Positions 2 through 30,704 of a stretch of DNA of 64,000 nucleotides are shown here, piece after piece (the first letter of the stretch is position 1; each line of letters begins with the position of its first letter). The position numbers and the translations under genes were made by a program. The stretch comes from Burkholderiales bacterium (lineage in GTDB: Bacteria; Pseudomonadota; Gammaproteobacteria; Burkholderiales; SG8-39). Under the pieces are notes generated by a model. That model was not told the DNA's origin. It saw only the letters and a list, made by a program, of their open reading frames with translations, and did not search any database. Location: assembly GCA_035702665.1 (NCBI GenBank), contig DASSQD010000030.1, positions 6,036-70,035 on the forward strand. The letters run 5' to 3'.

Positions 2-1201
2 TTCTCGGTCGAGGATCCGACGGCCGCCGATCCGAGGATTCCGGCGCCGGGCAAGGACGGCGTTCGCCCGAGCACGCCCGCGTACGACTCGGCCACCGGT
101 CTGCTCAAGACGCTGCCGAACTATCTGCTGTGGATGGTGTTCCTGTTCGTCTTCAGCTACATGGGGGCGAACATGCCGATCTGGCGCTTCGCCCAGCCGG
201 TGAACTACATCGGCTTCTGGATCACTTCGATCACCATTCTTTTATCCGCGCTGGGCATGGTGCTCGCGCCCCTCCTCGGAACAAAGGACGCGGCGGGCAA
301 TCTCATCGGCGCTTTCGCGCTGCCGGCGCTCAAGGACCTCGGCTTCACGATCGACGCGGCCAAGGCGTGGCAGCCGCTGTGGCCGATGCTCTTCGTGACC
401 ATCGCCTGCGGCGCAATCTCCGGCTGGCACGCGCTGGTCGGCTCGGTCGGCACCGCGCGGCAGCTCGAGTACGAGACCGACGGCCTGCCCGTAGGCGCGG
501 GCGGCATGTTCGGCGAGAACGCGCTGGCGCTGCTCTCGCTCACCGCGGTGTCGATCGCGGGAGCCGGCGGCGGCGGCGGACGCTTCGCTATCGGCGTCGG
601 CAAGCTCGTCTACGCCGGAACGTTCGGGCTGATTCCAGAGACCTTCGGCACCGCGCTCGGCTTCGCCACGTTCGTGATCATCGTGCTGACGGTCACGCAG
701 CTCGTCTTCCGCGTCATGCGCGTGACGCTCGCCGAGTGGGTGGGCGACGCGGTCCCGATCGCGAGGAACATGCACGTGGCGAGCCTGACGTCGATGGTCC
801 TCACCGCGGCGCTGGTTCTCACCGGGACGTGGGTCTACCTGTGGCAGATGTTCGGCGCCTCCAACCAGTTGATGGCCGCGCTCTCCATGCTCGTGGTCGC
901 GGTGTGGCTGAAGTCCGAGAAGCGCAACCCGGGCTTCGCGGTGGTACCGATGATCTTCATGTACGTCACTACGCTGGCGGCCACGATCGTCACGGCGCGC
1001 AACCTCTACGTGACCATTGCGGCGAACCCGAAGATGAGCGCCCTGCCCGTCGCGGGTGCGTGGGCGATGATCGCGGTGTCCGTGCTCCTCTTCATCGCGG
1101 CCATCCTCATCGGCTGGGACGGCTACAAGGCCTACCTGCGCCACGGTGCGACGCCATCGGCGCCGGTCCCAAAGGCGGCGGGAACCCCGCACCCGGCGTA
1201 G
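2..1201 (+). CDS. cstA: Carbon starvation protein CstA, C-terminal ~400 aa (5' end outside window)
   Basis: The frame of ORF 134..1201 stays open back to nt 2. Polytopic membrane protein with CstA-type motif LWQMFGASNQLMAALSML. Stop TAG 1199-1201. Confidence 0.8.
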   Translation, partial: FSVEDPTAADPRIPAPGKDGVRPSTPAYDSATGLLKTLPNYLLWMVFLFVFSYMGANMPIWRFAQPVNYIGFWITSITILLSALGMVLAPLLGTKDAAGNLIGAFALPALKDLGFTIDAAKAWQPLWPMLFVTIACGAISGWHALVGSVGTARQLEYETDGLPVGAGGMFGENALALLSLTAVSIAGAGGGGGRFAIGVGKLVYAGTFGLIPETFGTALGFATFVIIVLTVTQLVFRVMRVTLAEWVGDAVPIARNMHVASLTSMVLTAALVLTGTWVYLWQMFGASNQLMAALSMLVVAVWLKSEKRNPGFAVVPMIFMYVTTLAATIVTARNLYVTIAANPKMSALPVAGAWAMIAVSVLLFIAAILIGWDGYKAYLRHGATPSAPVPKAAGTPHPA

Positions 1202-1218
1202 AGGGAGAGCGGATCGTG

Positions 1219-1836
1219 TCAGTCGAGCGCGCGTTCAGCCAGCTTGTGCACGGCTTCGAAGAAGTCGCGCGCCGGCTGGCTGCGATCGGGGAGCCGGACG
1301 TGAAGCTGAAAATGAGGTTCGCTGCGGCGCACGGACAGCCGCCCCACTTTCATCCCCGCGTGCTGGGCGATCTTCAGGAGTGCGTCGGCTTGCGCGAGCG
1401 CGGCGGCATTTTCGTGATGCACGACGATGCTGCCCCCGCGCACCAGCCACTCCCGCGGGACGCGCGGGAGCGTGTCGCGGCCGGACCAGCTCGCGGGGTC
1501 GAGCGCCTCGAGCTCGCGCGCCGGAGGCCGGCGCAGCGCGCCGCGGACGATGAGCGTGTCGCGCCGGCCGCGCAGGCGGGAGAGCGGCCACCACGGCAGG
1601 TCGCGCGGCTCCAGGAATATGACCACTGCTGCCCGGGAGAACTCGGCTTTGCCCTGGTCTATAAGGAGCTCTACGGCGGTCGAGCCCAGCCAGCGCACGG
1701 TGGTGCGCTCGCCGATGACCGGCAACCCGCCCTGCATCCAGCGCATCGACTCGCGTCCCTTGCGGACGTTCCAGATCGTGCCGGCGGCGAACCAGGCGAC
1801 GATGGCGATCGCGGCGATGCCGATGAGCTCCGTCAT
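1219..1836 (-). CDS. Hypothetical membrane-anchored protein (single N-terminal TM helix)
   Basis: ORF 1219..1869 trimmed to ATG 1836 (MTELIGIAAIAIVAWFAAGTIW...). No family recognised. Divergent from the small-protein/ArsA-like genes. Confidence 0.5.
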   Translation of the reverse strand: MTELIGIAAIAIVAWFAAGTIWNVRKGRESMRWMQGGLPVIGERTTVRWLGSTAVELLIDQGKAEFSRAAVVIFLEPRDLPWWPLSRLRGRRDTLIVRGALRRPPARELEALDPASWSGRDTLPRVPREWLVRGGSIVVHHENAAALAQADALLKIAQHAGMKVGRLSVRRSEPHFQLHVRLPDRSQPARDFFEAVHKLAERALD

Positions 1837-1905
1837 GGCGGACTTCACGATAGCACGCCGCCTGCGCACGGGTGGAGGCGGACGCTGCGCGAGTTCCTCT
1901 ACGGG

Positions 1906-2133
1906 ATGTTCACCTACGAGATCGTGCAGGAAGTGCGGGAAATGCGCGGTTCGCTGGACAGGCTGTTCATGCTGGGACTATTCGGGGAAATGCTCGGCAT
2001 CCCCATCCTGCCGCCGTACTACGGGTTGCGCCTGCTGCCCTTCGTGGCGCCGCAGATCGGCACCTGGAAGCGCAGCATCCTGCGCGAGCGGCAGTTCGGC
2101 ACCGACCACGAACACCATCTGCACGGAGTATGA
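1906..2133 (+). CDS. Small tail-anchor-like protein, paralogue A (75 aa from ATG)
   Basis: Tail of shadow-extended ORF 130..2133; first ATG is at 1906. Shares the block GIPILPPYYxLRLLPxVxPQIxTWKR with the next gene. Similarity continues ~7 codons upstream of the ATG (LREFLYG vs IRETVYG). Only a CTG (1885, preceded by GGAGG) is available there, so the start is uncertain. Confidence 0.6.
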   Translation: MFTYEIVQEVREMRGSLDRLFMLGLFGEMLGIPILPPYYGLRLLPFVAPQIGTWKRSILRERQFGTDHEHHLHGV

Positions 2134-2144
2134 AGGAGACGATC

Positions 2145-2423
2145 ATGACCGACCCTGACAAGCAAGCGCCGAAGAAGAGCCTGTGGCAGAACATCCGCGA
2201 GACCGTCTACGGCATGGCGGCGCACGACATGAGCCGCGCGGCGCTGCGCACGCGCGCGTCGATGGAGCACCTGTTCATCCTCATCACCATGGGCGACCTG
2301 CTCGGCATCCCGATCCTGCCGCCGTACTACAGCCTGCGGCTCCTTCCTTACGTCGTGCCGCAGATCGCGACCTGGAAGCGGCGCATGCTGCGCGAGAAGG
2401 ACGTGGCCGATGCCATGTTCTGA
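2145..2423 (+). CDS. Small tail-anchor-like protein, paralogue B (92 aa)
   Basis: ATG 2145 lies 6 nt after AAGGAG (2133-2138). An alternative ATG 2130 overlaps the previous stop (ATGA). Polar N-terminal half, hydrophobic LFILITMGDLLGIPILPPYYSLRLLPYVVPQIATW, basic tail KRRMLREKD. Confidence 0.65.
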   Translation: MTDPDKQAPKKSLWQNIRETVYGMAAHDMSRAALRTRASMEHLFILITMGDLLGIPILPPYYSLRLLPYVVPQIATWKRRMLREKDVADAMF

Positions 2424-2445
2424 ATCGATGTTCTAGGGGGCGGCG

Positions 2446-3417
2446 ATGGGATTCAAGGACATCTTCCTGCAGCACCCCGAGCGCCGCTACATCATGTTCG
2501 GCGGCGGGGGCGGAGTGGGCAAGACCACGTTCTCCGCCGCGGCGGCGTACTGGCTCGCGACGCACGGCAAGAGGGTGCTCGTGTTCTCGGTCGACCCCCA
2601 GGCCTCGCTTACCGACATCTTCAAGAAGGACATCTTCGGCAAGGGGCCGGTGCAGATCATGCAGAACCTGTGGGCCCAGGAGATCGACGCCGACAAGCAC
2701 ATCAAGGCGTACCAGCAGGAGATCCGCCAGAAGATCCTCGACATGTACGGGATGCCCGCGGTGCCGGAGGAGATCGAGCACTACATCCAGGCGGCGAGCG
2801 CCGAGCCGGCGATGGAGGAGAGCGCGATGTTCGACGCCGTCGTGGACGTGGTCATGAAGGGCGACTACGACTACTACATCTACGACCTCGTGCCGCTCGG
2901 CCACGCGCTCTATTACCTGTCGATGGCCAAGGTCTACGACGAGTGGATCAACAAGGTCACCAAGCTCCGCGAGGACATGCGCGAGTACGAGGAGATGGTG
3001 AGCCGGCTCAAGCACGAGAAGATGAGCGAGCAGGACCAGATTCTCCAGGAGCTGCTCTACATCAAGAACCGCATCAACACCTCTGCCGGGATCCTCACCG
3101 ACAAGGCGAAGACGGCGTTCTTCTTCGTGCTGATCCCGGAGGCCGGGGTCATCAACGACACCCAGAAGGCGGCCAAGCTGTTCGCGCAGTTCGACGTGCC
3201 GCTCTCCGGGTACGTGGTGAACCGGGTCATACCGCACGAGCTGCTCGGCCAGAACATCCCCGAGTACCTGCGCCGCCGCATCGCCATGCAGGACCAGCAC
3301 CTGGGCGACGTGCGCACGGCCTTCGGCGACCGGGTGCTCGCGCGGGTTCCGGAGATGGAGCGCGACGTCACCGGCCTGCCGATGATCGAGAAGCTTGCCG
3401 CCGGAATGTTCGCCTAG
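2446..3417 (+). CDS. ArsA/GET3/TRC40-family P-loop ATPase, paralogue 1 (signature Lys of deviant Walker A replaced)
   Basis: ORF track. Motifs: FGGGGGVGKTT Walker A, VDPQASL (cf. DPAHSL), EPAMEESAMF, YDLVPLGH switch-II-like. Single ATPase domain of 323 aa. Starts 22 nt after the small gene. Confidence 0.85.
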   Translation: MGFKDIFLQHPERRYIMFGGGGGVGKTTFSAAAAYWLATHGKRVLVFSVDPQASLTDIFKKDIFGKGPVQIMQNLWAQEIDADKHIKAYQQEIRQKILDMYGMPAVPEEIEHYIQAASAEPAMEESAMFDAVVDVVMKGDYDYYIYDLVPLGHALYYLSMAKVYDEWINKVTKLREDMREYEEMVSRLKHEKMSEQDQILQELLYIKNRINTSAGILTDKAKTAFFFVLIPEAGVINDTQKAAKLFAQFDVPLSGYVVNRVIPHELLGQNIPEYLRRRIAMQDQHLGDVRTAFGDRVLARVPEMERDVTGLPMIEKLAAGMFA

Positions 3418-3429
3418 CGAGGGAGAGCC

Positions 3430-4461
3430 ATGCCGGAAATCACCCTGTCGATGTCCCAGTACCTGCGCGATCATCCCGCGCAGAAATACCTGTTCTTCGG
3501 CGGCAAGGGCGGGGTGGGCAAGACCGTCTTCGCCGCGGCGGCAGCCATCGGGCTGGCGCGCCAGGGCCGCCGCACGCTGCTCGCCTCCACGAACCCCGTG
3601 CACAGCCTGACGGCCCTGCTCGGCCAGGACGTGCTCGGCAAGCACGTCCCGGTCGCGGGCGTGCCGAACCTGTGGGCGTACGAGATCGAGACGAAGGATA
3701 CGATCGAGCGCAGCAAGCTGCAGATCCGCGAGAAGATCCGCTGGTTCCTCAAGTTCGCCGACATCACCACCAAGGCCGACGACTTCGTCGAGACGGCGAC
3801 GATGAACCCCGCGTTCGAGGAGTCGGCGATGTTCGAGAACATGATCGACCTCATGTTCAAGAACGAGTACGACGTCTACGTCTTCGATACGGCGCCCACC
3901 GCCAACGCGCGGCGCCTGCTCGGCATGTCGAAGGTGTACGCGCTGTGGGTCAACAAGATGATGAAGAGCCGCGAGGAAGCGAAGACGCTGCGCGAGCTGC
4001 TCTCCTTCACCAAGAAGAAGGAGGCCGACCCGCTGATGGAGTACCTGGTCTCCTTCCGCGACCGGATGGAGCACGCGCGCGTGCTGCTCACCGACCCCAA
4101 GCTCACGGCGTTCTACTTCGTCACCCTGGCCGAAGCCCTGCCGATCGCCGTGGTCACGCGCTTCATCCAGTGGTTCAAGGATTTCGGCATCCCCGTGGGC
4201 GGCGTGTTCGTGAACATGCTCATCGACCGCACATCGGTCGGCGCGGACGCGGCCGAGTTCGTCAGGAACCGGGTGGCGATGCAGCAGGAGCACATGCAGA
4301 CCATCTGGCGCGAGTTCGACGGCGCCGTGCGCGCCATCGTGCCGCTGTTCGAGACCGAGATCCGCGGCGTGCCGATGCTCCAGCGCCTGTGCGACGCGAT
4401 GTTCGCGGGCGACGGCGCGAAGCCGGCGGAGAAGAGCAAGATCGCCTCCCTGAAGGCGTGA
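3430..4461 (+). CDS. ArsA/GET3/TRC40-family P-loop ATPase, paralogue 2
   Basis: ORF track. Motifs: FGGKGGVGKTV Walker A, TNPVHSL, NPAFEESAMF, FDTAPTANARRLL. 343 aa. Starts 12 nt after paralogue 1. Confidence 0.85.
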   Translation: MPEITLSMSQYLRDHPAQKYLFFGGKGGVGKTVFAAAAAIGLARQGRRTLLASTNPVHSLTALLGQDVLGKHVPVAGVPNLWAYEIETKDTIERSKLQIREKIRWFLKFADITTKADDFVETATMNPAFEESAMFENMIDLMFKNEYDVYVFDTAPTANARRLLGMSKVYALWVNKMMKSREEAKTLRELLSFTKKKEADPLMEYLVSFRDRMEHARVLLTDPKLTAFYFVTLAEALPIAVVTRFIQWFKDFGIPVGGVFVNMLIDRTSVGADAAEFVRNRVAMQQEHMQTIWREFDGAVRAIVPLFETEIRGVPMLQRLCDAMFAGDGAKPAEKSKIASLKA

Positions 4462-4463
4462 AA

Positions 4464-4484
4464 CCGGCGGGCCGGGCCCGCCGG
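4464..4484. terminator. GC-rich palindromic hairpin between convergent genes (possible bidirectional terminator)
   Basis: CCGGCGGGCCgGGCCCGCCGG is a 21-nt near-perfect palindrome lying between the ArsA-like stop (4461) and the hsp20 stop (4510). There is no U-tract. Confidence 0.3.
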
Positions 4485-4509
4485 GGAGGAACGATCGAAC
4501 CCTGAAGCT

Positions 4510-4956
4510 TTACTGGACCTTGAGCTCCTTGCTCGAGCCGTTGGCCTTCTTCGGGAGCTTCAGATCGAGCACGCCGTCGGCGTACTTGGCTTCGGACTTG
4601 CCGGCGTCGATGTCGTGGCCGAGCGTGAAGCTGCGCGACTGCTTGCCGTAGTAGCGCTCGCTGCGGACGACCTTTTCGCCCTTCTTCTCTTCCTTTTCCT
4701 TCTTGAGCTCCGCCTCGATGAATACCTGGTTGCCCTCGATCGCGACGTGGATATCCTCTTTCCTCACGCCGGGGATCTCGGCCTTGACGGTGTAGGCGGC
4801 GTCGGCTTCGGCGACGTCCACCTTGATGCGCGGCTCGAAGTCGCCTTCGCCGGTCCAGGGACGCACGCGAAAGCCCTTGAAGAAATCGTCGAAGTTGGCC
4901 AGCGGCTGGAAGCGCGCCAGTTCTTCAAACGGATCGAAACGGGTGATGTTTGCCAT
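4510..4956 (-). CDS. Hsp20/alpha-crystallin family small heat-shock protein
   Basis: ORF 4510..5160 trimmed to ATG 4956, with AGGAGA 6 nt upstream on the minus strand. Alpha-crystallin domain (AYTVKAEIPGVRKEDIHVAIEGNQVFI...GVLDLKLPK). Confidence 0.9.
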   Translation of the reverse strand: MANITRFDPFEELARFQPLANFDDFFKGFRVRPWTGEGDFEPRIKVDVAEADAAYTVKAEIPGVRKEDIHVAIEGNQVFIEAELKKEKEEKKGEKVVRSERYYGKQSRSFTLGHDIDAGKSEAKYADGVLDLKLPKKANGSSKELKVQ

Positions 4957-5037
4957 GGTGGTTCTCCTGTCGGTTCGCTGATTGCTCCCCTTGAAAGGGG
5001 GACAACTCCAATCATCTTCCAGAGGTGCGCCGCCCGT

Positions 5038-5051
5038 TTGATCTGGATCAA
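5038..5051. promoter_or_regulatory. FNR/Anr box TTGATctggATCAA (perfect consensus)
   Basis: Exact match to TTGAT-N4-ATCAA in the hsp20 / CBS-groEL divergent region. On the minus strand an ATGATT -10-like hexamer (5015-5010) sits where a class II promoter (site at -41.5) would place it for hsp20. Confidence 0.75.
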
Positions 5052-5084
5052 GACCCTCGTGCATCGCCACGTTATCGTAGAGAT

Positions 5085-5278
5085 GTGCGCGCGGCTCTCC
5101 TCCACAAGGGGGGAGCGGGCGCGGAGTTGAGGTGGCCTGAAAGCAGGCCAAAGTTCGCAACGCCTTTCGGCGCGGCGATGGAAGGAGACGGCCTCAGACC
5201 GTTCGGCGAGCGAGCTTCAAGCGCCGACCCGGGGTCTCCGCCAAGGACCCGCCCTCACCAGACGGCGGGTTCTTTTTT
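5085..5278 (+). ncRNA. Candidate FNR-dependent small RNA (~190 nt), boundaries predicted
   Basis: FNR box centred at 5044.5, TATCGT at 5073-5078, predicted TSS ~5085. Internal hairpins at 5134-5149 (GGCCTG-AAAG-CAGGCC) and 5161-5172 (CGCC-TTTC-GGCG). Ends at an intrinsic terminator (5247-5278). No plus-strand CDS lies upstream that the terminator could serve. Confidence 0.3.
5247..5278 (+). terminator. Rho-independent terminator (plus strand)
   Basis: ACCCGCC-(10 nt loop)-GGCGGGT stem followed by TCTTTTTT. The T-tract orientation fits the plus strand only. Confidence 0.65.
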
Positions 5279-5302
5279 CGTGCTTTTGGGCGCCGTGTTT
5301 GC

Positions 5303-5316
5303 TTGACCTATCTCAA
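5303..5316. promoter_or_regulatory. FNR-like box TTGACctatCTCAA
   Basis: 12 of 14 positions fit TTGAY-N4-RTCAA. Centre lies 57.5 nt upstream of the CBS-gene ATG (5367). It follows the 5247-5278 terminator. Confidence 0.5.
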
Positions 5317-5366
5317 ATCGCGTGCGAGCCCGCCTTTGTAAGCTGAACTCGGGACCTGGAGATCTT

Positions 5367-5813
5367 ATGAACATCGAACGGATCTGCAACCGCGAAGTCA
5401 CGTTGGCCTACGAGAGCGAGCGCATCGACGAGATCGCAAAGCGGATGCGCGAACAGCACGTGGGGAGCGTGATCGTCATCCCGCGCGTCGGCGGCCGCGT
5501 ACCTGTCGGCATGCTCACGGACCGCGACATCGTCGTAGAGGTGCTCGCGGCAGGCCTCGATTACCGCACCGTGACCGTCGGCGAGGTGATGAGCCGGGAA
5601 CCGGCCACCGTGCGCGAGGACGACGACGTCGTCGATGCCCTCAGGGTCATGCGCACCTACGGCGTGCGCAGGCTCCCGGTGCTTTCGCGCACGGGCATCC
5701 TCGCCGGCATCGTGGCGATCGACGACGTGCTCGAGGTGTTCGCGGGGCAGGTCGAAGACATGGTCAAGGCGATCGGCAGGGAGCAGACGCAGGAAGCGCA
5801 GGCCAGAACCTAG
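5367..5813 (+). CDS. CBS-domain-pair protein (stand-alone, 148 aa)
   Basis: ORF 5322..5813 trimmed to ATG 5367, with GGAG 6 nt upstream. Two CBS repeats (VGSVIVI...GMLTDRDIV; GVRRLPVL...GIVAIDDVL). Confidence 0.8.
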   Translation: MNIERICNREVTLAYESERIDEIAKRMREQHVGSVIVIPRVGGRVPVGMLTDRDIVVEVLAAGLDYRTVTVGEVMSREPATVREDDDVVDALRVMRTYGVRRLPVLSRTGILAGIVAIDDVLEVFAGQVEDMVKAIGREQTQEAQART

Positions 5814-8677: not shown

Positions 8678-8691
8678 TTGACCTGGATCAA
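8678..8691. promoter_or_regulatory. FNR/Anr box TTGACctggATCAA
   Basis: Intergenic. Centre lies 40.5 nt upstream of the phaC ATG (8725). TAGCAT -10-like hexamer at 8713-8718. Confidence 0.7.
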
Positions 8692-8724: not shown

Positions 8725-10524
8725 ATGGGTGCAATCGAAAAGTTGCGCGCGCCGGTGAAGAAGGATCCGCCTTCGGCGCCCGTGCCGGAAGACATCGACG
8801 CGGCCGCCGCGATGGCTTTCGGTGTCGACCGGGTGCTGCGCGCATACGCTTCGCGCGCGACGTTCGGAATCTCGCCCGGCGCGGTGGCGATCGCGTTCTT
8901 CGACTGGTGGCAGCACCTCGCCACTTCGCCCGGCAAGCAGCTCGAGCTCGGGCGAAAGGTATTCCGCAAGTGGCTGCGCTTCTCGGATTTTCTCGCACGC
9001 GCGGCGCGCGGGGAAAAGACCGCGCCATGCATCGAGCCGCTCGCAGGCGACTCGAGGTTCGCCGCAGAGGCCTGGAACGCCTGGCCCTTCGATGCGATGT
9101 ACCAGGGTTTTCTCCTGACGCAGCAGTGGTGGCACAACGCGACCACCGACGTGAAGGGCGTGGCGCCGCATCACGCCGCGCTGGTGAATTTCGTGACACG
9201 GCAGATGCTGGACATGTGGGCGCCTTCCAATCTCGCGTGGACGAATCCGGAAGTGCTCCGCGTTACCCGCGAGCAGGGCGGGAAGAACCTCGTTCGCGGC
9301 ATCTCGAATTTCATGGAGGACTGGAGGCGGATCGCGCTCGGGCAGCCGCCGGTCGGCGCAGAGGCCTTCCTCCCCGGAAAGCAGGTTGCGCGCACGCCGG
9401 GCAAGGTCGTGTTCCGCAACCGGCTGATGGAACTGATCCAGTACGCGCCCGCGACGGATACGGTGTTCGCCGAACCGCTGCTCGTCGTGCCGGCGTGGAT
9501 CATGAAGTACTACATCCTCGACCTGTCGCCGCATAACTCGCTCGTCGAGTACCTGGTCGAGCGCGGTCACAGCGTGTTCATGATCTCCTGGAAGAACCCG
9601 GGGCCGTCCGACCGCGACCTGTCGCTCGCCGACTACCGCCGTCTCGGCATCGAAGACGCGCTCGCCGCGATCGGGCGCATCGCTCCGGAGCGCCGCGTGC
9701 ACGCCGTCGGCTATTGCCTGGGCGGCACCCTGCTCGCGATCGCCGCGGCCGCGATGGCGCGCAACGGGGACGCGCGGCTCGCGACGGTGACCCTCCTCGC
9801 CTCGCAGGTGGACTTCGCCGAAGCCGGCGAGCTCGGACTCTTCATCGACGAGAGCGAGGTCGCCCTGCTCGAGGACATGATGGCCGAGCAGGGCTTTCTG
9901 GATCCCGGGCAGATGAGCGGCGCCTTCCAGCTGCTGCGCTCGAACGATCTCATCTGGTCGCAACGCATCACCGAATACCTCCTCGGCGAGCGGCCGCCGA
10001 TGACCGACTTGATGGCCTGGAACGCGGACGGCACGCGCATGCCGTGCCGCATGCACAGCGAGTACCTGCGGCGGCTGTACCTGCACAACGACCTGTCGGC
10101 CGGGAGGTATCACGTGGACGGGCGGCCCGTCGCGCTGCGCGACATCCGGGCTCCGCTCTTCGCGGTCGGCACCGAGAAGGACCACGTCGCGCCGTGGCGC
10201 TCGGTGTACAAGCTCAACCTGTATACGGACTCGGAAGTGACGTTTCTGCTCGCCTCGGGAGGACATAACGTGGGGATCGTGAGCGATCCGGCGTATGCGG
10301 GCAGCAGCTACCAGGTCGCGACCCGCGGACGCGACGAGCCGTACATCGACCCGGACGCCTGGGCGCGGCAGGCACCGCGCTCGCAAGGCTCGTGGTGGCC
10401 GGAATGGACGCGCTGGCTTGCGCAGCACTCGGGCGCGCGCACGGCGCCACCCGAGATGGGCTGCGCCGCGGCGGGCTACCCCGTGCTGGACGATGCGCCC
10501 GGCCAGTACGTGCACATGAAATAG
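8725..10524 (+). CDS. phaC: Class I poly(3-hydroxyalkanoate) synthase
   Basis: 599 aa with lipase-box GYCLGG and the typical PhaC N-terminal domain (FDWWQHLATSPGKQ). Confidence 0.9.
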   Translation: MGAIEKLRAPVKKDPPSAPVPEDIDAAAAMAFGVDRVLRAYASRATFGISPGAVAIAFFDWWQHLATSPGKQLELGRKVFRKWLRFSDFLARAARGEKTAPCIEPLAGDSRFAAEAWNAWPFDAMYQGFLLTQQWWHNATTDVKGVAPHHAALVNFVTRQMLDMWAPSNLAWTNPEVLRVTREQGGKNLVRGISNFMEDWRRIALGQPPVGAEAFLPGKQVARTPGKVVFRNRLMELIQYAPATDTVFAEPLLVVPAWIMKYYILDLSPHNSLVEYLVERGHSVFMISWKNPGPSDRDLSLADYRRLGIEDALAAIGRIAPERRVHAVGYCLGGTLLAIAAAAMARNGDARLATVTLLASQVDFAEAGELGLFIDESEVALLEDMMAEQGFLDPGQMSGAFQLLRSNDLIWSQRITEYLLGERPPMTDLMAWNADGTRMPCRMHSEYLRRLYLHNDLSAGRYHVDGRPVALRDIRAPLFAVGTEKDHVAPWRSVYKLNLYTDSEVTFLLASGGHNVGIVSDPAYAGSSYQVATRGRDEPYIDPDAWARQAPRSQGSWWPEWTRWLAQHSGARTAPPEMGCAAAGYPVLDDAPGQYVHMK

Positions 10525-10553
10525 CGAGGGCACAAACCCGACAGGAGACGATC

Positions 10554-11009
10554 ATGACGACTGCCACTGAAACAAAGACCACGGCGCCAGGCAAGGGATT
10601 GCCCGGTGGATTCCCGTTCGCGGCTCTCCTTCCCGGCAACAAGGACTGGGAGAACAGCTCGAAGCAGATGCTCCAGACTTGGAAGGAGCAGTTGGACACG
10701 AGCCTCAAGCTCATCGATGCCGCGGTGCAAGGCGCGCTCGAGATGCGCAGCTCGCAGCTCGCCGCGGCGATGGAGACGCATGCGCGCGATCTCGACGCGG
10801 AAAAGCTGGTGACGAGAGCCAAGTCGGCCTCGGACCTGCTCGCCATACAGCTCAACTGGATGACGGGCAACCTGGAGCGCTCCATGGCCTACTGGAACCA
10901 GATGTTCCAGGCTGCCTCGGACGCGAACACCAAGCTGCTCGAGCTGCTGCGCGAGCACTCCCCCGAAGCCGGCGGCGGGCGGGACAAGGCGCGTACCCCG
11001 ACGCCCTGA
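10554..11009 (+). CDS. Phasin-like PHA-granule protein
   Basis: ORF 10392..11009 trimmed to ATG 10554, with AGGAGA 6 nt upstream. Helical, Ala/Gln/Leu-rich, 151 aa. Lies immediately downstream of phaC. Confidence 0.6.
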   Translation: MTTATETKTTAPGKGLPGGFPFAALLPGNKDWENSSKQMLQTWKEQLDTSLKLIDAAVQGALEMRSSQLAAAMETHARDLDAEKLVTRAKSASDLLAIQLNWMTGNLERSMAYWNQMFQAASDANTKLLELLREHSPEAGGGRDKARTPTP

Positions 11010-11037
11010 GCCCGGGCGCCGATCCGGGGCCTTCGCC

Positions 11038-12570
11038 GTGAACCCCGGGTTCGATGCTGTCGTCATCGGTTCCGGCATGGGCGGGCTGGCGGCGGCGGCG
11101 GCGCTCGCCCGCAGCGGCCGCCGTGTGCTGGTGCTCGAGCAGCATTCGCAGCTCGGCGGCCTCACGCAGACCTTCCGCCGCGGCGACTACGTGTTCGCGC
11201 CCGGCGTGCACTACGTCGGCGGGGTGGGCGACGTGCCGGGTCCCGATGGTCAGTTCGGCCGGCTGCTGCGCCGCTTTGCCGGCGATGAGTTGCGCTTCGC
11301 TTCGGTCGGTTCGCCTTACGACATCATTCGCCTCCCTGGATTCGAGTTCCCCATCGAAGCGCCTCTCGCGGCGTATCGCGCGCGCCTCGAAGCCGTGTTT
11401 CCGGGCGAGGAGACGGTGATCGACACCTACTTCAGAGGCTGCTCGGATGCGCAACGCGCCAGCGTCGCGCTATTCGGAGCTGCGATGCTTCCCGCCCCTC
11501 TCGCCGCTCTGGTGCGGTGGCTCAACGCCGGACGGCTACGCCGCACGCTGGAGCCGTCCGCCGCGGAGATCGTCCGCCGGGCACGCGATCCGCGACTTGC
11601 CGCGGTGCTCACTTCGCGCTGGGCCGACTACGGACTGCCGCCCGAGCGCGCGCCGTTCGCCGTGCACGCGCTCGTGACGGCGAGCTACTATGCCGGGGCC
11701 TACTACCCGGTTGGCGGGCCGGCGAGGTTCGCGCAGGCCTTCGCGCGCTCGATCCGCGCGCACGGCGGCGAGCTGCGCACCGACGCGCGCGTCACCGCCA
11801 TTCGGCTCGAGGGTGGCCGGGCGGCCGGCGTGCGCCTGGAAGGAGGAGAGTCGATCGACGCGGCGAGCGTCGTCTCCGGCATGGGCGCGCACAATACGCT
11901 CGCCGCGCTGCCGGGCGACGCCGCCACCGCCTGGCGCGAATCGCTCGCGCGATTCGAGCCGGGCCTGTCGTACATCGGGCTCTATCTCGGTCTCCGAGGA
12001 GACATCCGCGCGGGCGGAGCGACCGCAGCGAACGTGTGGGTCTACGAGAGCGAGGACGTCGGCCGGGTGTGGGAACGGCCCGCCGACGAGGATGCGCCCT
12101 CGATCTTCGTGTCCTTCCCGTCGCTCAAGGACGCCGCGCACGACAATCCGCGGCGCCATACCGCGGAAGTCGTCGCCGCGTGCCGCTGGGATCCGTTTGC
12201 CGCCTGGGCCGGGACCACGCCCGGCCATCGCCCCGAGGAATACGAGGCGACGAAAGCATGGATCGCCGAGCGTCTGCTTGCGCAATTCAAGCGGCATTTC
12301 CCGAGACTCGGCCCTCTCGTCGATTTCCACGAGCTGTCGACGCCGCTCTCGCAGGCTTCTTACGTCGGGGCGGACCGCGGCGCAATGTACGGCATCGAGA
12401 TGTCGGCGGCGCGCCTGCGGAGCGGCGCCCTTCGGGCACGCACGCCCGTTCCGGGCCTGCTCCTTGCCGGCCAGGACGCGGCGAGCATGGGCGTCCAGGG
12501 CGCGTTCATGGGCGGACTGATGGCGGCCGCGGCGGTCGAGCCACGGCTATGGCTCGAGATGGGTTCGTAG
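11038..12570 (+). CDS. FAD-dependent oxidoreductase, phytoene-desaturase/retinol-saturase-like family
   Basis: GTG start. N-terminal dinucleotide fold DAVVIGSGMGGLAAAAALARSGRRVLVLEQ. 510 aa. Confidence 0.8.
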   Translation: MNPGFDAVVIGSGMGGLAAAAALARSGRRVLVLEQHSQLGGLTQTFRRGDYVFAPGVHYVGGVGDVPGPDGQFGRLLRRFAGDELRFASVGSPYDIIRLPGFEFPIEAPLAAYRARLEAVFPGEETVIDTYFRGCSDAQRASVALFGAAMLPAPLAALVRWLNAGRLRRTLEPSAAEIVRRARDPRLAAVLTSRWADYGLPPERAPFAVHALVTASYYAGAYYPVGGPARFAQAFARSIRAHGGELRTDARVTAIRLEGGRAAGVRLEGGESIDAASVVSGMGAHNTLAALPGDAATAWRESLARFEPGLSYIGLYLGLRGDIRAGGATAANVWVYESEDVGRVWERPADEDAPSIFVSFPSLKDAAHDNPRRHTAEVVAACRWDPFAAWAGTTPGHRPEEYEATKAWIAERLLAQFKRHFPRLGPLVDFHELSTPLSQASYVGADRGAMYGIEMSAARLRSGALRARTPVPGLLLAGQDAASMGVQGAFMGGLMAAAAVEPRLWLEMGS

Positions 12571-13056: not shown

Positions 13057-13070
13057 TTGACCCAAATCAA
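13057..13070. promoter_or_regulatory. FNR/Anr box TTGACccaaATCAA
   Basis: Lies between the NnrS stop (13078) and the cytochrome c start. Centre is 41.5 nt from ATG 13022. Confidence 0.65.
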
Positions 13071-14742: not shown

Positions 14743-14756
14743 TTGATCTGGCTCAA
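14743..14756. promoter_or_regulatory. FNR-like box TTGATctggCTCAA
   Basis: One mismatch in the right half-site. Lies between the ATPase stop (14764) and the SirB2-like start (14615). Confidence 0.5.
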
Positions 14757-18758: not shown

Positions 18759-18772
18759 TTGATCTAAGTCAA
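18759..18772. promoter_or_regulatory. FNR/Anr box TTGATctaaGTCAA
   Basis: Lies in the divergent region between the USP operon (ATG 18689) and the acs/GNAT gene (ATG 18853). Confidence 0.65.
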
Positions 18773-21584: not shown

Positions 21585-21598
21585 TTGATCCAGGTCAA
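21585..21598. promoter_or_regulatory. FNR/Anr box TTGATccagGTCAA
   Basis: Centre lies 40.5 nt upstream of ATG 21632. TACTAT hexamer at 21620-21625. Confidence 0.7.
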
Positions 21599-29981: not shown

Positions 29982-30694
29982 GCGCCGCGGCGCTGACCGC
30001 GGTGTTCCTCGTCGGACTCCTCGGGGGCGGGCACTGCCTCGGCATGTGCGGCGGCATCGTGACCGCGCTCACCGTGCGCCTGCCGCGCGACCGGCCGCGC
30101 TGGTCGCTGCACCTCGCCTATCACGCCGGGCGGATCACGACGTACGCCGCGGCGGGCGCGCTCGCGGGCGGGCTGGGCTCGGCGGCGCTGCTCCTCGGCG
30201 CGGCCCTCCCGATCCAGGTCGTGCTCTACGTCGTGGCGCAGCTGGTGCTCGTCGCCCTGGGGCTGTACCTGGTCGGCGTGCCGCGCTATCTCGACGTGTT
30301 CGAGCGCGCCGGAAAAGTCCTGTGGCAGCGGATCCAGCCCGCGGCGTCCGCGCTATTCCCGGTCCGCACTCCCGCGCGCGGCTACGCGGTGGGGCTGCTG
30401 TGGGGACTGCTGCCCTGCGGCCTCGTCTACAGCGTGCTTGTGACGGCGCTCGTCTCGGGCAGCGCGAAGTTCGGCGCCCTGACGATGCTCGCCTTCGGCG
30501 CCGGAACCCTGCCCAGCCTGCTCGCCGCGGGAACGGTCTTTCCGGCGCTCGCGCGGACCCGCGGCGGCGGAGCGGCGCGCCGCATCGCCGGCGGCATCGT
30601 CATCGCTTTCGGACTCGTCGGACTGGCGTACGCGGGCGACCTCGAGCGTCTAGCCCGGAATCCGTATTTCTGCTGGACCGCGCCGGGAAGTTGA
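29978..30694 (+). CDS. DsbD_2/TauE-like membrane protein (HCxxMCGG motif)
   Basis: ATG 29978 overlaps the hemN stop (ATGA). GGGHCLGMCGG and LLPCGLVY motifs. ~6 TM helices. Confidence 0.7.
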   Translation: MSAAALTAVFLVGLLGGGHCLGMCGGIVTALTVRLPRDRPRWSLHLAYHAGRITTYAAAGALAGGLGSAALLLGAALPIQVVLYVVAQLVLVALGLYLVGVPRYLDVFERAGKVLWQRIQPAASALFPVRTPARGYAVGLLWGLLPCGLVYSVLVTALVSGSAKFGALTMLAFGAGTLPSLLAAGTVFPALARTRGGGAARRIAGGIVIAFGLVGLAYAGDLERLARNPYFCWTAPGS

Positions 30695-30704
30695 TCTGGG
30701 TCAA
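30691..30704. promoter_or_regulatory. FNR/Anr box TTGATctggGTCAA
   Basis: Overlaps the preceding stop codon (30692-30694). Centre is 40.5 nt upstream of the hemerythrin ATG (30738). Confidence 0.65.

Follow-up and report, generated by a model that had tools for sequence, protein, structure and literature searches.

A conserved six-gene locus with a CstA-family permease, two small DUF7990 proteins and two ArsA/Get3-type ATPases in a Burkholderiales bacterium

Based on a survey with SEED, 26 bacterial and archaeal gene clusters have been described that combine cstA with the gene of a single-domain ArsA homologue of about 330 amino acids (aa) (Castillo & Saier 2010, Int J Microbiol 2010:187373, PMC2963123). 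Of these 26 clusters, 24 also hold a protein of about 90 aa with a single transmembrane (TM) segment, which was named CstX, and a single-segment protein of about 210 aa, CstY, was found in five archaea (PMC2963123). Adjacent ArsA pairs were noted in two organisms and paralogous CstX pairs in two, the trees of CstA, CstX and ArsA match and indicate co-evolution, and no ars genes occur in the cstA-type clusters; the ArsA homologue was proposed to energise CstA, with CstX as a linker (PMC2963123). The locus analysed here is a further member of this kind of system, already described in 2010. It lies at the left end of a 64,000-nucleotide (nt) stretch of DNA, referred to as the window, from the metagenome-assembled genome of a Burkholderiales bacterium (assembly GCA_035702665.1, contig DASSQD010000030.1, positions 6,036 to 70,035), where part of a cstA gene is followed by a membrane-anchored orphan gene, two small paralogous genes (sp1 and sp2) and the genes of two ArsA/Get3-type ATPases (ATPase A and ATPase B). 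The locus tags begin at VFK92_03910, and NCBI labels sp1, sp2 and the orphan "hypothetical". Single-domain ArsA/Get3 homologues occur widely among bacteria and archaea, for the most part without an assigned function, and are routinely misnamed "arsenite-transporting ATPase"; the present module is a compact and very widely conserved system for asking what they do.

The real unit at this locus consists of six genes, namely cstA, the orphan (on the opposite strand), sp1, sp2, ATPase A and ATPase B, and is found in at least four phyla. A genome scan with one genome per species matched at least 599 stretches, and at least 590 of them were confirmed as relatives of the small protein. The neighbourhood counts in this study refer to the best 80 of these at least 590 confirmed loci, in which the proteins of the window were compared by tblastn and the denominators are the loci with enough flank. 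The 80 loci come from Beta-, Alpha- and Gammaproteobacteria, Acidobacteriota (Thermoanaerobaculia), Chloroflexota (Anaerolineales, Caldilineales, Dehalococcoidia) and Myxococcota. cstA lies upstream in 72/72 loci, the orphan is present in 72/72 (between cstA and sp1 in 70, downstream in two from Dehalococcoidia), and a second gene of the sp2 family, DUF7990, precedes sp2 in 72/72. Both ATPase genes follow downstream in 67/67, which answers a check on synteny between the small proteins and paired ArsA-like ATPases that had been suggested in a preliminary description of this DNA. The ATPases and the small proteins are both duplicated, their order is fixed in related loci, and no ars genes were found among the conserved neighbours of these loci. 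The median identity to the window is 84% for sp2, 81% for ATPase B, 79% for ATPase A, 79% for CstA, 64% for sp1 and 49% for the orphan; no protein of the module is more conserved than sp2, which is 77-97% identical across phyla. The cstA gene that is cut by the left edge of the window is part of the module; its 5' end lies outside the window, and the fragment matches residues ~243-641 of the L002 orthologue, which is intact and 641 aa long; L002 is the closest relative among the matches listed. At about 40% identity to sp2, more remote DUF7990 members are found in similar clusters with other gene orders, such as cstA-DUF7990-x-DUF7990-ArsA-ArsA-x-orphan homologue in L083 (hhalign probability 99.6% for the orphan), DUF7990-cstA-DUF7990-ArsA in L087, and cstA-[N-terminal domain + DUF7990]-DUF7990-ArsA-ArsA in L168-170. 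The order is shuffled but the content is kept, a pattern typical of functionally linked families. The features of the window are collected in Table 1.

Table 1. Coordinates of the module genes, their nearest neighbour and the FNR-type boxes in the window.
Feature	Coordinates	Strand	Evidence or remark
CstA-family permease gene, 3' part (~400 codons)	2..1201	+	PF02554, E=1.7e-44; frame open from 2
Orphan, 205 aa, N-terminal TM helix and ~170-aa domain	1219..1836	-	Divergent from sp1; Kyte-Doolittle 19-residue value 2.15 at residues 4-22
Shine-Dalgarno sequence GGAGG, 6 nt before CTG 1885	1874..1878	+	Sequence read and relatives compared
sp1, position-1 DUF7990/CstX-like protein, 82 aa from CTG (probable start)	1885..2133	+	Annotated as 75 aa from ATG 1906
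sp2, position-2 DUF7990/CstX-like protein, 92 aa	2145..2423	+	PF25952 on homologues; AAGGAGA ahead of the gene
ATPase A, 323 aa, single ArsA/Get3-family domain	2446..3417	+	PF02374, E=3e-66
ATPase B, 343 aa, single ArsA/Get3-family domain	3430..4461	+	PF02374, E=1e-61
hsp20	4510..4956	-	Convergent with the module, 48 bp from ATPase B
FNR-type box	5038-5051		Perfect; between hsp20 and CBS-groEL
FNR-type box	8678-8691		Before phaC
FNR-type box	13057-13070		Next to nnrS
FNR-type box	14743-14756
FNR-type box	18759-18772
FNR-type box	21585-21598
FNR-type box	30691-30704		Before the hemerythrin gene that follows hemN

The direct observations in the preliminary description are all borne out. sp1 and sp2 are adjacent paralogues (51% identity over 65 aa, E=3e-25) that share the block GIPILPPYY.LRLLP..PQI.TWKR, each with a polar or charged N-terminal half, a Pro/Tyr-rich hydrophobic segment, which is borderline for a TM helix, and basic residues after it. 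Two single-domain ATPases of the ArsA/GET3/TRC40 family follow after spacers of 22 nt (sp2 to ATPase A) and 12 nt (ATPase A to ATPase B), with PF02374 and TIGR00345 matches; ars genes, a Cys triad and a CxxC motif are absent from the locus; and the sequence holds a convergent hsp20, an adjoining CBS-groEL and a divergent membrane-anchored orphan. What did not survive the comparison is the claim that hsp20, CBS and groEL are partners of the module, and with it most of the appeal of a stress holdase that would act together with Hsp20 and GroEL in hypoxic stasis. Such a holdase would agree with the gene order in the window, with the perfect FNR-type box between hsp20 and CBS-groEL and with the holdase activity of yeast Get3, but hsp20 occurs within 8 kb in 2/80 related loci, at other positions, and groEL and CBS each occur in 3/80; moreover, L001 (1.36 Mb, ENA), the closest long-contig relative listed, has a lipase-like gene where the window has hsp20, and the intergenic region between the orphan and sp1 holds no FNR-type box. 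We consider this explanation highly improbable. In 16/66 loci, a third DUF7990 gene stands after ATPase B, and those identified are from Chloroflexota. This third paralogue, with the tail ...RERDLMDAIF, lies directly after ATPase B (L023, L025, L028, L040, L045, L047, L049, L057, L060 and others), the place that hsp20 occupies in the window.

The two ATPases are 37% identical to each other (E=5e-64), and both pass the TRC40/GET3/ArsA family model TIGR00345 (212 and 208 bits, cut-off 135). They are named "TRC40/GET3/ArsA family transport-energizing ATPase" and "ArsA family ATPase" by NCBI, and the JGI/IMG name of their relatives, "arsenite-transporting ATPase", together with the strong PF02374 match, would suit a split arsenite-pump ArsA whose ars genes lie beyond the window. 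The preliminary description had already noted that ars genes and the metalloid-binding Cys triad are missing, and the present results agree with it to the point that a pump of this kind has a negligible probability. The ArsA equivalogs are far from reached, with 93-105 bits against a cut-off of 650 for TIGR04291 and 119-128 bits against 800 for NF041417. The cut-off of the NosAFP equivalog is likewise far above the scores of both proteins, as are those of the BagA/BagB models (38-53 bits against 400-521). ATPase A has no Cys and ATPase B has one, at residue 321 near the C-terminus, so that the metalloid-binding triad is missing. Furthermore, the conserved partner in 72/72 loci is CstA rather than ArsB or Acr3, and cstA-type clusters never occur with ars genes (PMC2963123). 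The best sequence matches in the PDB are the archaeal Get3 structures 3zq6 and 3ug6 (E ~1e-50 to 1e-55). The CDFC/CEFC of archaeal Get3, i.e. its zinc-binding CxxC motif, aligns to AEFV in ATPase B.

The two subunits differ at catalytic positions in a manner that is kept throughout the related loci. Switch I of ATPase A is SVDPQAS, with the Asp kept, and is identical in 71/72 orthologues, the remaining one differing in the following residue only; switch I of ATPase B is STNPVHS, with Asn in place of Asp, in 69/69 true orthologues. Switch II is DLVPLGH in ATPase A (72/72) and DTAPTAN in ATPase B (69/69). The Asp/Asn split between the paired ATPases is also seen in the distant clusters L083 and L168. 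In HMMER alignments, the Asn of ATPase B stands opposite the STDPAHSL Asp of archaeal Get3 proteins with solved structures, which is the catalytic switch-I Asp at the Get3 D57 position. The D57N variant of yeast Get3 does not hydrolyse ATP. In dimers of deviant Walker A ATPases, each site is completed in trans by the signature Lys of the partner subunit. The P-loop of ATPase B, GGKGGVGKT, is intact. ATPase A of the window has GGGGGVGKT and has lost the signature Lys, as have 15/72 of its orthologues, the others having GGKGGLGKT. The loss of this Lys from ATPase A removes the trans Lys from the site of ATPase B, and therefore both changes, the Asn in B and the missing Lys in A, fall on the same site. 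From this pattern we infer an obligate A/B heterodimer with one competent site, in which ATP is bound by A and Lys is supplied by B, and one degenerate site in B that probably serves for binding only. The helical subdomain, which forms the groove for clients in Get3 and the site for metalloids in ArsA, contains 6.4% Met in ATPase A and 5.8% in ATPase B, against 3.6-3.7% in the rest of each protein; as a comparison of composition only, the Met values of the same region are 4.9% (yeast Get3) and 8.2% (M. jannaschii Get3). The lid region of ATPase B is 7 residues shorter than that of M. jannaschii Get3.

The small proteins belong to a large family without an assigned function. sp2 has 5604 homologues in a large protein collection, or 396 representatives at 50% clustering, and PF25952 (DUF7990) is precomputed for each of the 120 homologues listed, among them proteins that share 99% identity with sp2 as well as the L001 orthologue of sp1. 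Pfam assigns no function to DUF7990. The NCBIfam model NF041419, "cory-CC-star protein", reaches 29 and 36 bits over 55-58 residues and stays below its cut-off of 80, and the tails of sp1 and sp2 (...HLHGV and ...DAMF) differ from its C-terminal Cys-Cys. Plasmid copies of sp2 were searched for and none were found. Position 1 and position 2 of the gene pair form separate orthologous classes, each with its own conserved C-terminal tail: ...HEHHLHG[LVI] at position 1, conserved across phyla, and ...REKDV(A/S)DAMF at position 2. The tail of sp1 (2095-2130) and those of its orthologues in L002-L081 are rich in His and acidic residues (D.HEHHLHG[LVI] or DEHDYHLEGL). This position-1 tail could be a metal-binding or docking peptide, in a module whose ATPases are without the zinc-binding CxxC of Get3. 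Several of the longer variants of the first DUF7990 protein (P0232, at 6001-6675 of L168; also P0187 and P0131) carry an N-terminal extension of about 140 aa with a Cys pair, and the L168 cluster has no orphan gene between cstA and the small genes. A Pfam scan of these extensions gave no match, and the possibility that the extension of P0232 or P0187 is an orphan-like domain was ruled out by an hhalign probability below 1%. In P0162 (213 aa, partial), the last ~90 residues of a CstA-family permease are fused in frame to DUF7990; this may be a natural fusion or an assembly artefact and was not used as evidence.

The hydrophobic region of the small proteins bears directly on whether they are carried by the ATPases or work with them. 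In sp2 it spans residues 43-77. The Kyte-Doolittle maximum over 19 residues is 1.42 for sp1 and 1.61-1.77 for sp2, compared with 2.80 for a control tail-anchored (TA) protein, which places both at the border of TM segments. The alignment of DUF7990 has invariant G50, D51, G54, P56 and P68 and the near-invariant PPYY.LRLLP...WKR. The region combines an invariant Asp with 4-5 Pro, and its individual residues are conserved across phyla. Because of this weak hydrophobicity, the Asp, the Pro residues and the conservation of individual residues, the region fits a protein interface better than a lipid-facing anchor. Basic residues stand on both sides of it, and the N-terminal half is polar. The AlphaFold2 model of sp2 (mean predicted local distance difference test score, pLDDT, of 61) has a long helix at 9-52, a Pro-rich turn at 53-59 and helices at 60-91; the turn thus falls in the middle of the hydrophobic segment, in a model of low confidence that shows no autonomous fold, as would be expected of a subunit that takes up its structure on its partner proteins. 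A hairpin whose two ends are cytoplasmic appears at least as likely as a tail anchor. Since they are about 80% identical between phyla, carry position-specific tails and are duplicated in parallel with the ATPases, sp1 and sp2 look like sequence-specific adaptor subunits rather than TA clients. The preliminary description had left open whether the small proteins are clients, receptors or co-factors of a Get3-like ATPase, and the role of co-factors of a Get3/ArsA-like pair is the part of this proposal that is supported, while that of TA clients is not supported.

The same features weigh on a GET-like targeting system, in which the A/B pair would capture the hydrophobic halves of sp1 and sp2 in its groove and deliver them to the membrane with the orphan as a receptor like Get1/Get2, the small proteins then serving CstA without the ATPase. 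Several observations speak for it: the closest structures by sequence are archaeal Get3, the helical subdomains are Met-rich as in Get3, sp1 and sp2 begin with a polar half and continue into a hydrophobic segment with basic residues behind it, and every locus with enough flank encodes a single-TM protein whose cytoplasmic domain is conserved. The segment itself, however, argues the other way, being weak (1.4-1.8 on the scale above), interrupted by an invariant Asp and Pro residues and conserved in its residues, whereas TA anchors need only hydrophobicity, and the flanking basic residues point to a hairpin whose ends are both cytoplasmic. A two-gene chaperone that serves two private clients would also be unusual, one of its subunits would be constitutively impaired in hydrolysis, its CxxC is missing and its lid is short, and a sister subfamily of DUF7990 occurs without any adjacent ATPase. 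On balance, we regard targeting as rather unlikely.

This sister subfamily is 35-50% identical to sp2, has the same motif and ends in ...TDLxxxDL. A member of it lies at 7001-7324 of L085. Neither the 80 metagenome loci (L088-L167) nor one NCBI genome locus showed CstA, the orphan or a strong ArsA homologue next to the sister gene. In 21/43 loci with enough flank, a full-length feoB lies directly upstream of the sister gene, which occupies the "feoC position". It is often followed by a gene with a MoCF_biosynth domain. The linkage to FeoB was considered as a second association of the family with an NTPase-linked transporter and was set aside, as these FeoB proteins are 72-100% identical and the linkage may be the synteny of one clade.

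The annotated start of sp1 is probably too far downstream. The N-terminal motif W..LREFLYGM, which is conserved in the family, is encoded upstream of ATG 1906, and CTG 1885 is the sole start-like codon in frame in that upstream stretch. The equivalent codon is ATG in L008, TTG in L009 and GTG in L020 and L027, and L004 has no ATG at the position of 1906 and no canonical start upstream either. Because GGAGG stands 6 nt upstream of CTG 1885, LREFLYG is encoded before ATG 1906 and relatives have start codons at the same place, CTG 1885 is probably the true start and gives the 82-aa product. The GC content of the module region is 0.64-0.69, and with this high value long spurious open reading frames (ORFs) overlap the real genes in other frames and on the other strand, for example a 667-aa ORF at 130-2133 (+) that extends from cstA across the orphan into sp1. 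Some "long" DUF7990 proteins in the databases (P0179, P0393) are such over-extensions or read-throughs. In L001, apparent frameshifts in sp1, ATPase A and cstA (9700-11250) are probably long-read assembly errors rather than signs of pseudogenes. A search of the window against Rfam gave no families, and no sigma-70-like promoters were found in 1100-5400.

The orphan has an N-terminal TM helix, an R/K-rich sequence, the motif N.R.G..L.WMQ.GLP and a domain of some 170 aa in which Arg, Asp and Trp residues are invariant. This domain is probably cytoplasmic because positive charges follow the TM helix. Searches of Pfam and NCBIfam gave no match, and its 1324 homologues are all "hypothetical" or unnamed. 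The AlphaFold2 model, built on a shallow alignment of 51 sequences, has an alpha/beta fold (pLDDT 61), and no PDB match in a Foldseek search with the model had an E-value below 0.2. The match ranked second, to a chain of the multipass translocon entry 7tm3 (probability 0.92, TM-score 0.35), was not significant and was not used. With 205 aa and one N-terminal TM helix, the orphan resembles CstY as described in the literature, and by this match of descriptions it would be a CstY-like core component of the module. It may act as a docking site, a regulator or a receptor. In the same way, and likewise by description only, sp1 and sp2 (82 and 92 aa, with a hydrophobic segment and the same gene linkage) resemble CstX.

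A role at low oxygen had been proposed in the preliminary description, and it has indirect support at cstA that does not depend on hsp20. FNR-type boxes, defined as TTGAT-N4-ATCAA with at most one mismatch, occur seven times in the window against 0.4 expected. Besides the genes named in Table 1, the neighbours of these boxes include a P-type ATPase and a MacB/FtsX-type permease. The window looks like a low-oxygen/NO-response gene island. No FNR-type box is present in the 48-bp spacer between the orphan and sp1, and the region upstream of the window's own cstA lies outside the window. In related loci, such a box is found within 300 bp upstream of cstA in 16/68, nearly all of them proteobacterial, against a density of about 0.06 boxes per kb over all loci, and L002 has two ahead of cstA, at 5005 and 5039. 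The boxes at cstA are absent from the Chloroflexota loci and are found in Acidobacteriota only in L051. In Proteobacteria, cstA is thus probably under a regulator of the FNR/Crp family and hence induced at low oxygen.

Taking these results together, a possible mechanism may be proposed for the module. ATPase A and ATPase B would form a heterodimer of the Get3/ArsA type, in which the competent site binds ATP in A and is completed in trans by the signature Lys of B, while the site in B would be degenerate and, in this lineage, also without the trans Lys from A. The small proteins may be permanent, sequence-specific adaptors, one for each ATPase subunit. Their Pro/Tyr-rich hydrophobic hairpin could be embedded in the membrane or lie on it, beside the CstA permease, and their amphipathic helices and class-specific tails could contact the Met-rich helical subdomains of both ATPases. 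As ATP drives the dimer to close and open, this movement would be passed on to the CstA-family permease and would energise or gate transport, in analogy with ArsA on ArsB, and the TM-anchored orphan may serve as a membrane-docking or auxiliary subunit. In Proteobacteria, control of cstA by an FNR/Crp-family regulator would lead to induction at low oxygen. In its general form, that of a conserved six-gene CstA module in which an asymmetric A/B ATPase is coupled to the permease through small-protein adaptors, we lean towards this account and hold it to be slightly on the probable side. A more specific form, in which two "frozen client" hairpins tether a Get3-type heterodimer permanently to a carrier-type permease and the ATP cycle powers or gates the CstA-family transporter, is doubtful and is offered tentatively.

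Several points weigh against the coupling of ATPase and permease. The mechanism rests on synteny and analogy and therefore stands at the level of a proposal, with the interactions, the transport and the roles of the ATPases all predicted. cstA is not co-transcribed here with the operon of small proteins and ATPases, as the orphan lies between them on the other strand, and we know of no precedent for ATP-driven uptake through a CstA-type carrier. The loss of the signature Lys is limited to this lineage (15/72 orthologues of ATPase A). The equation of DUF7990 with CstX and of the orphan with CstY is drawn from matching descriptions and not from sequence comparison. Because the sister subfamily occurs without adjacent CstA or ArsA-like genes, the partner of the DUF7990 motif need not be CstA or an ATPase, which weakens the claim that the small proteins are solely couplers. 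The separate transcription unit also leaves room for a function in biogenesis or quality control, in which the ATPase pair, the small proteins and the orphan would aid the folding or assembly of the ~640-aa CstA rather than its transport cycle: the co-occurrence with cstA is strict, yet cstA is transcribed apart, and Get3-family proteins are known chaperones. Most CstA-family proteins, for example that of E. coli, need no such factor, however. The co-evolving trees of CstA, CstX and ArsA in turn suggest a lasting contact (PMC2963123), and we consider a biogenesis function distinctly unlikely.

If the ATPase drives or gates a CstA-type carrier, the module would extend the ArsAB principle to an unrelated permease as its second example, and the coupling would also bear on the evolution of tail-anchor targeting. 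If the heterodimer is tethered as in the more specific form, it would be a living intermediate between the pump-energising ArsA and the targeting Get3, and some archaeal proteins now called Get3 would be subunits of transporters. If the coupling is false, the small proteins are still an uncharacterised family with about 80% identity between phyla.

The module agrees with the clusters of Castillo & Saier (PMC2963123) in its CstA permease, its small proteins of about 90 aa, its single-TM protein of about 210 aa, its single-domain ArsA homologues of about 330 aa, the absence of ars genes and the proposed coupling of the ATPase to CstA by way of the small protein. That study was comparative, covered 26 genomes and gave no residue-level mechanism, and in contrast to it the CstY-like protein is found here in all bacterial clusters with enough flank. 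New with respect to PMC2963123 are the Asp/Asn asymmetry of the ATPases, the position-specific classes of small proteins, their near-identity across phyla, the FNR-type boxes, the start of sp1 and the bacterial CstY-like component. Literature searches on CstX, DUF7990/PF25952, cory-CC-star and Get3 with CstA found nothing relevant after 2010, and the papers on BagAB that were found do not concern the cstA module. ArsAB of E. coli R773 shares with the module the superfamily and fold of the ATPase, a soluble ATPase acting, as proposed here, on a carrier-type permease, and two non-equivalent nucleotide sites. ArsA differs in being a fused A1-A2 polypeptide with a metalloid site of Cys113, Cys172 and Cys422 and with DTAPTGH in both halves, whereas the module has two separate genes, no Cys triad, an altered switch II, a permease of another family and additional small subunits. 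The BagA/BagB proteins of M. tuberculosis (Rv3679/Rv3680, PDB 6bs3) are likewise encoded by adjacent, diverged genes for Get3-like ATPases and form a heterodimer, but the similarity of the module ATPases to them is distant (E ~1e-7 to the PDB chains), and we know of no linkage of BagAB to CstA. Get3/TRC40 (3zq6, 3ug6) is the best PDB match in sequence and is similar in its single-domain size, its Met-rich helical subdomain and partners with a C-terminal hydrophobic region. On the other hand, neither ATPase A nor ATPase B combines the signature Lys, the switch-I Asp and DTAPTGH as Get3 does, and the module ATPases differ from Get3 in the missing CxxC, the predicted obligate heterodimer with a "D57N-like" subunit, the shorter lid and the fixed linkage to a permease gene. 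Whereas Get3 serves a broad TA clientele, the partners of the module ATPases are two dedicated and highly conserved proteins.

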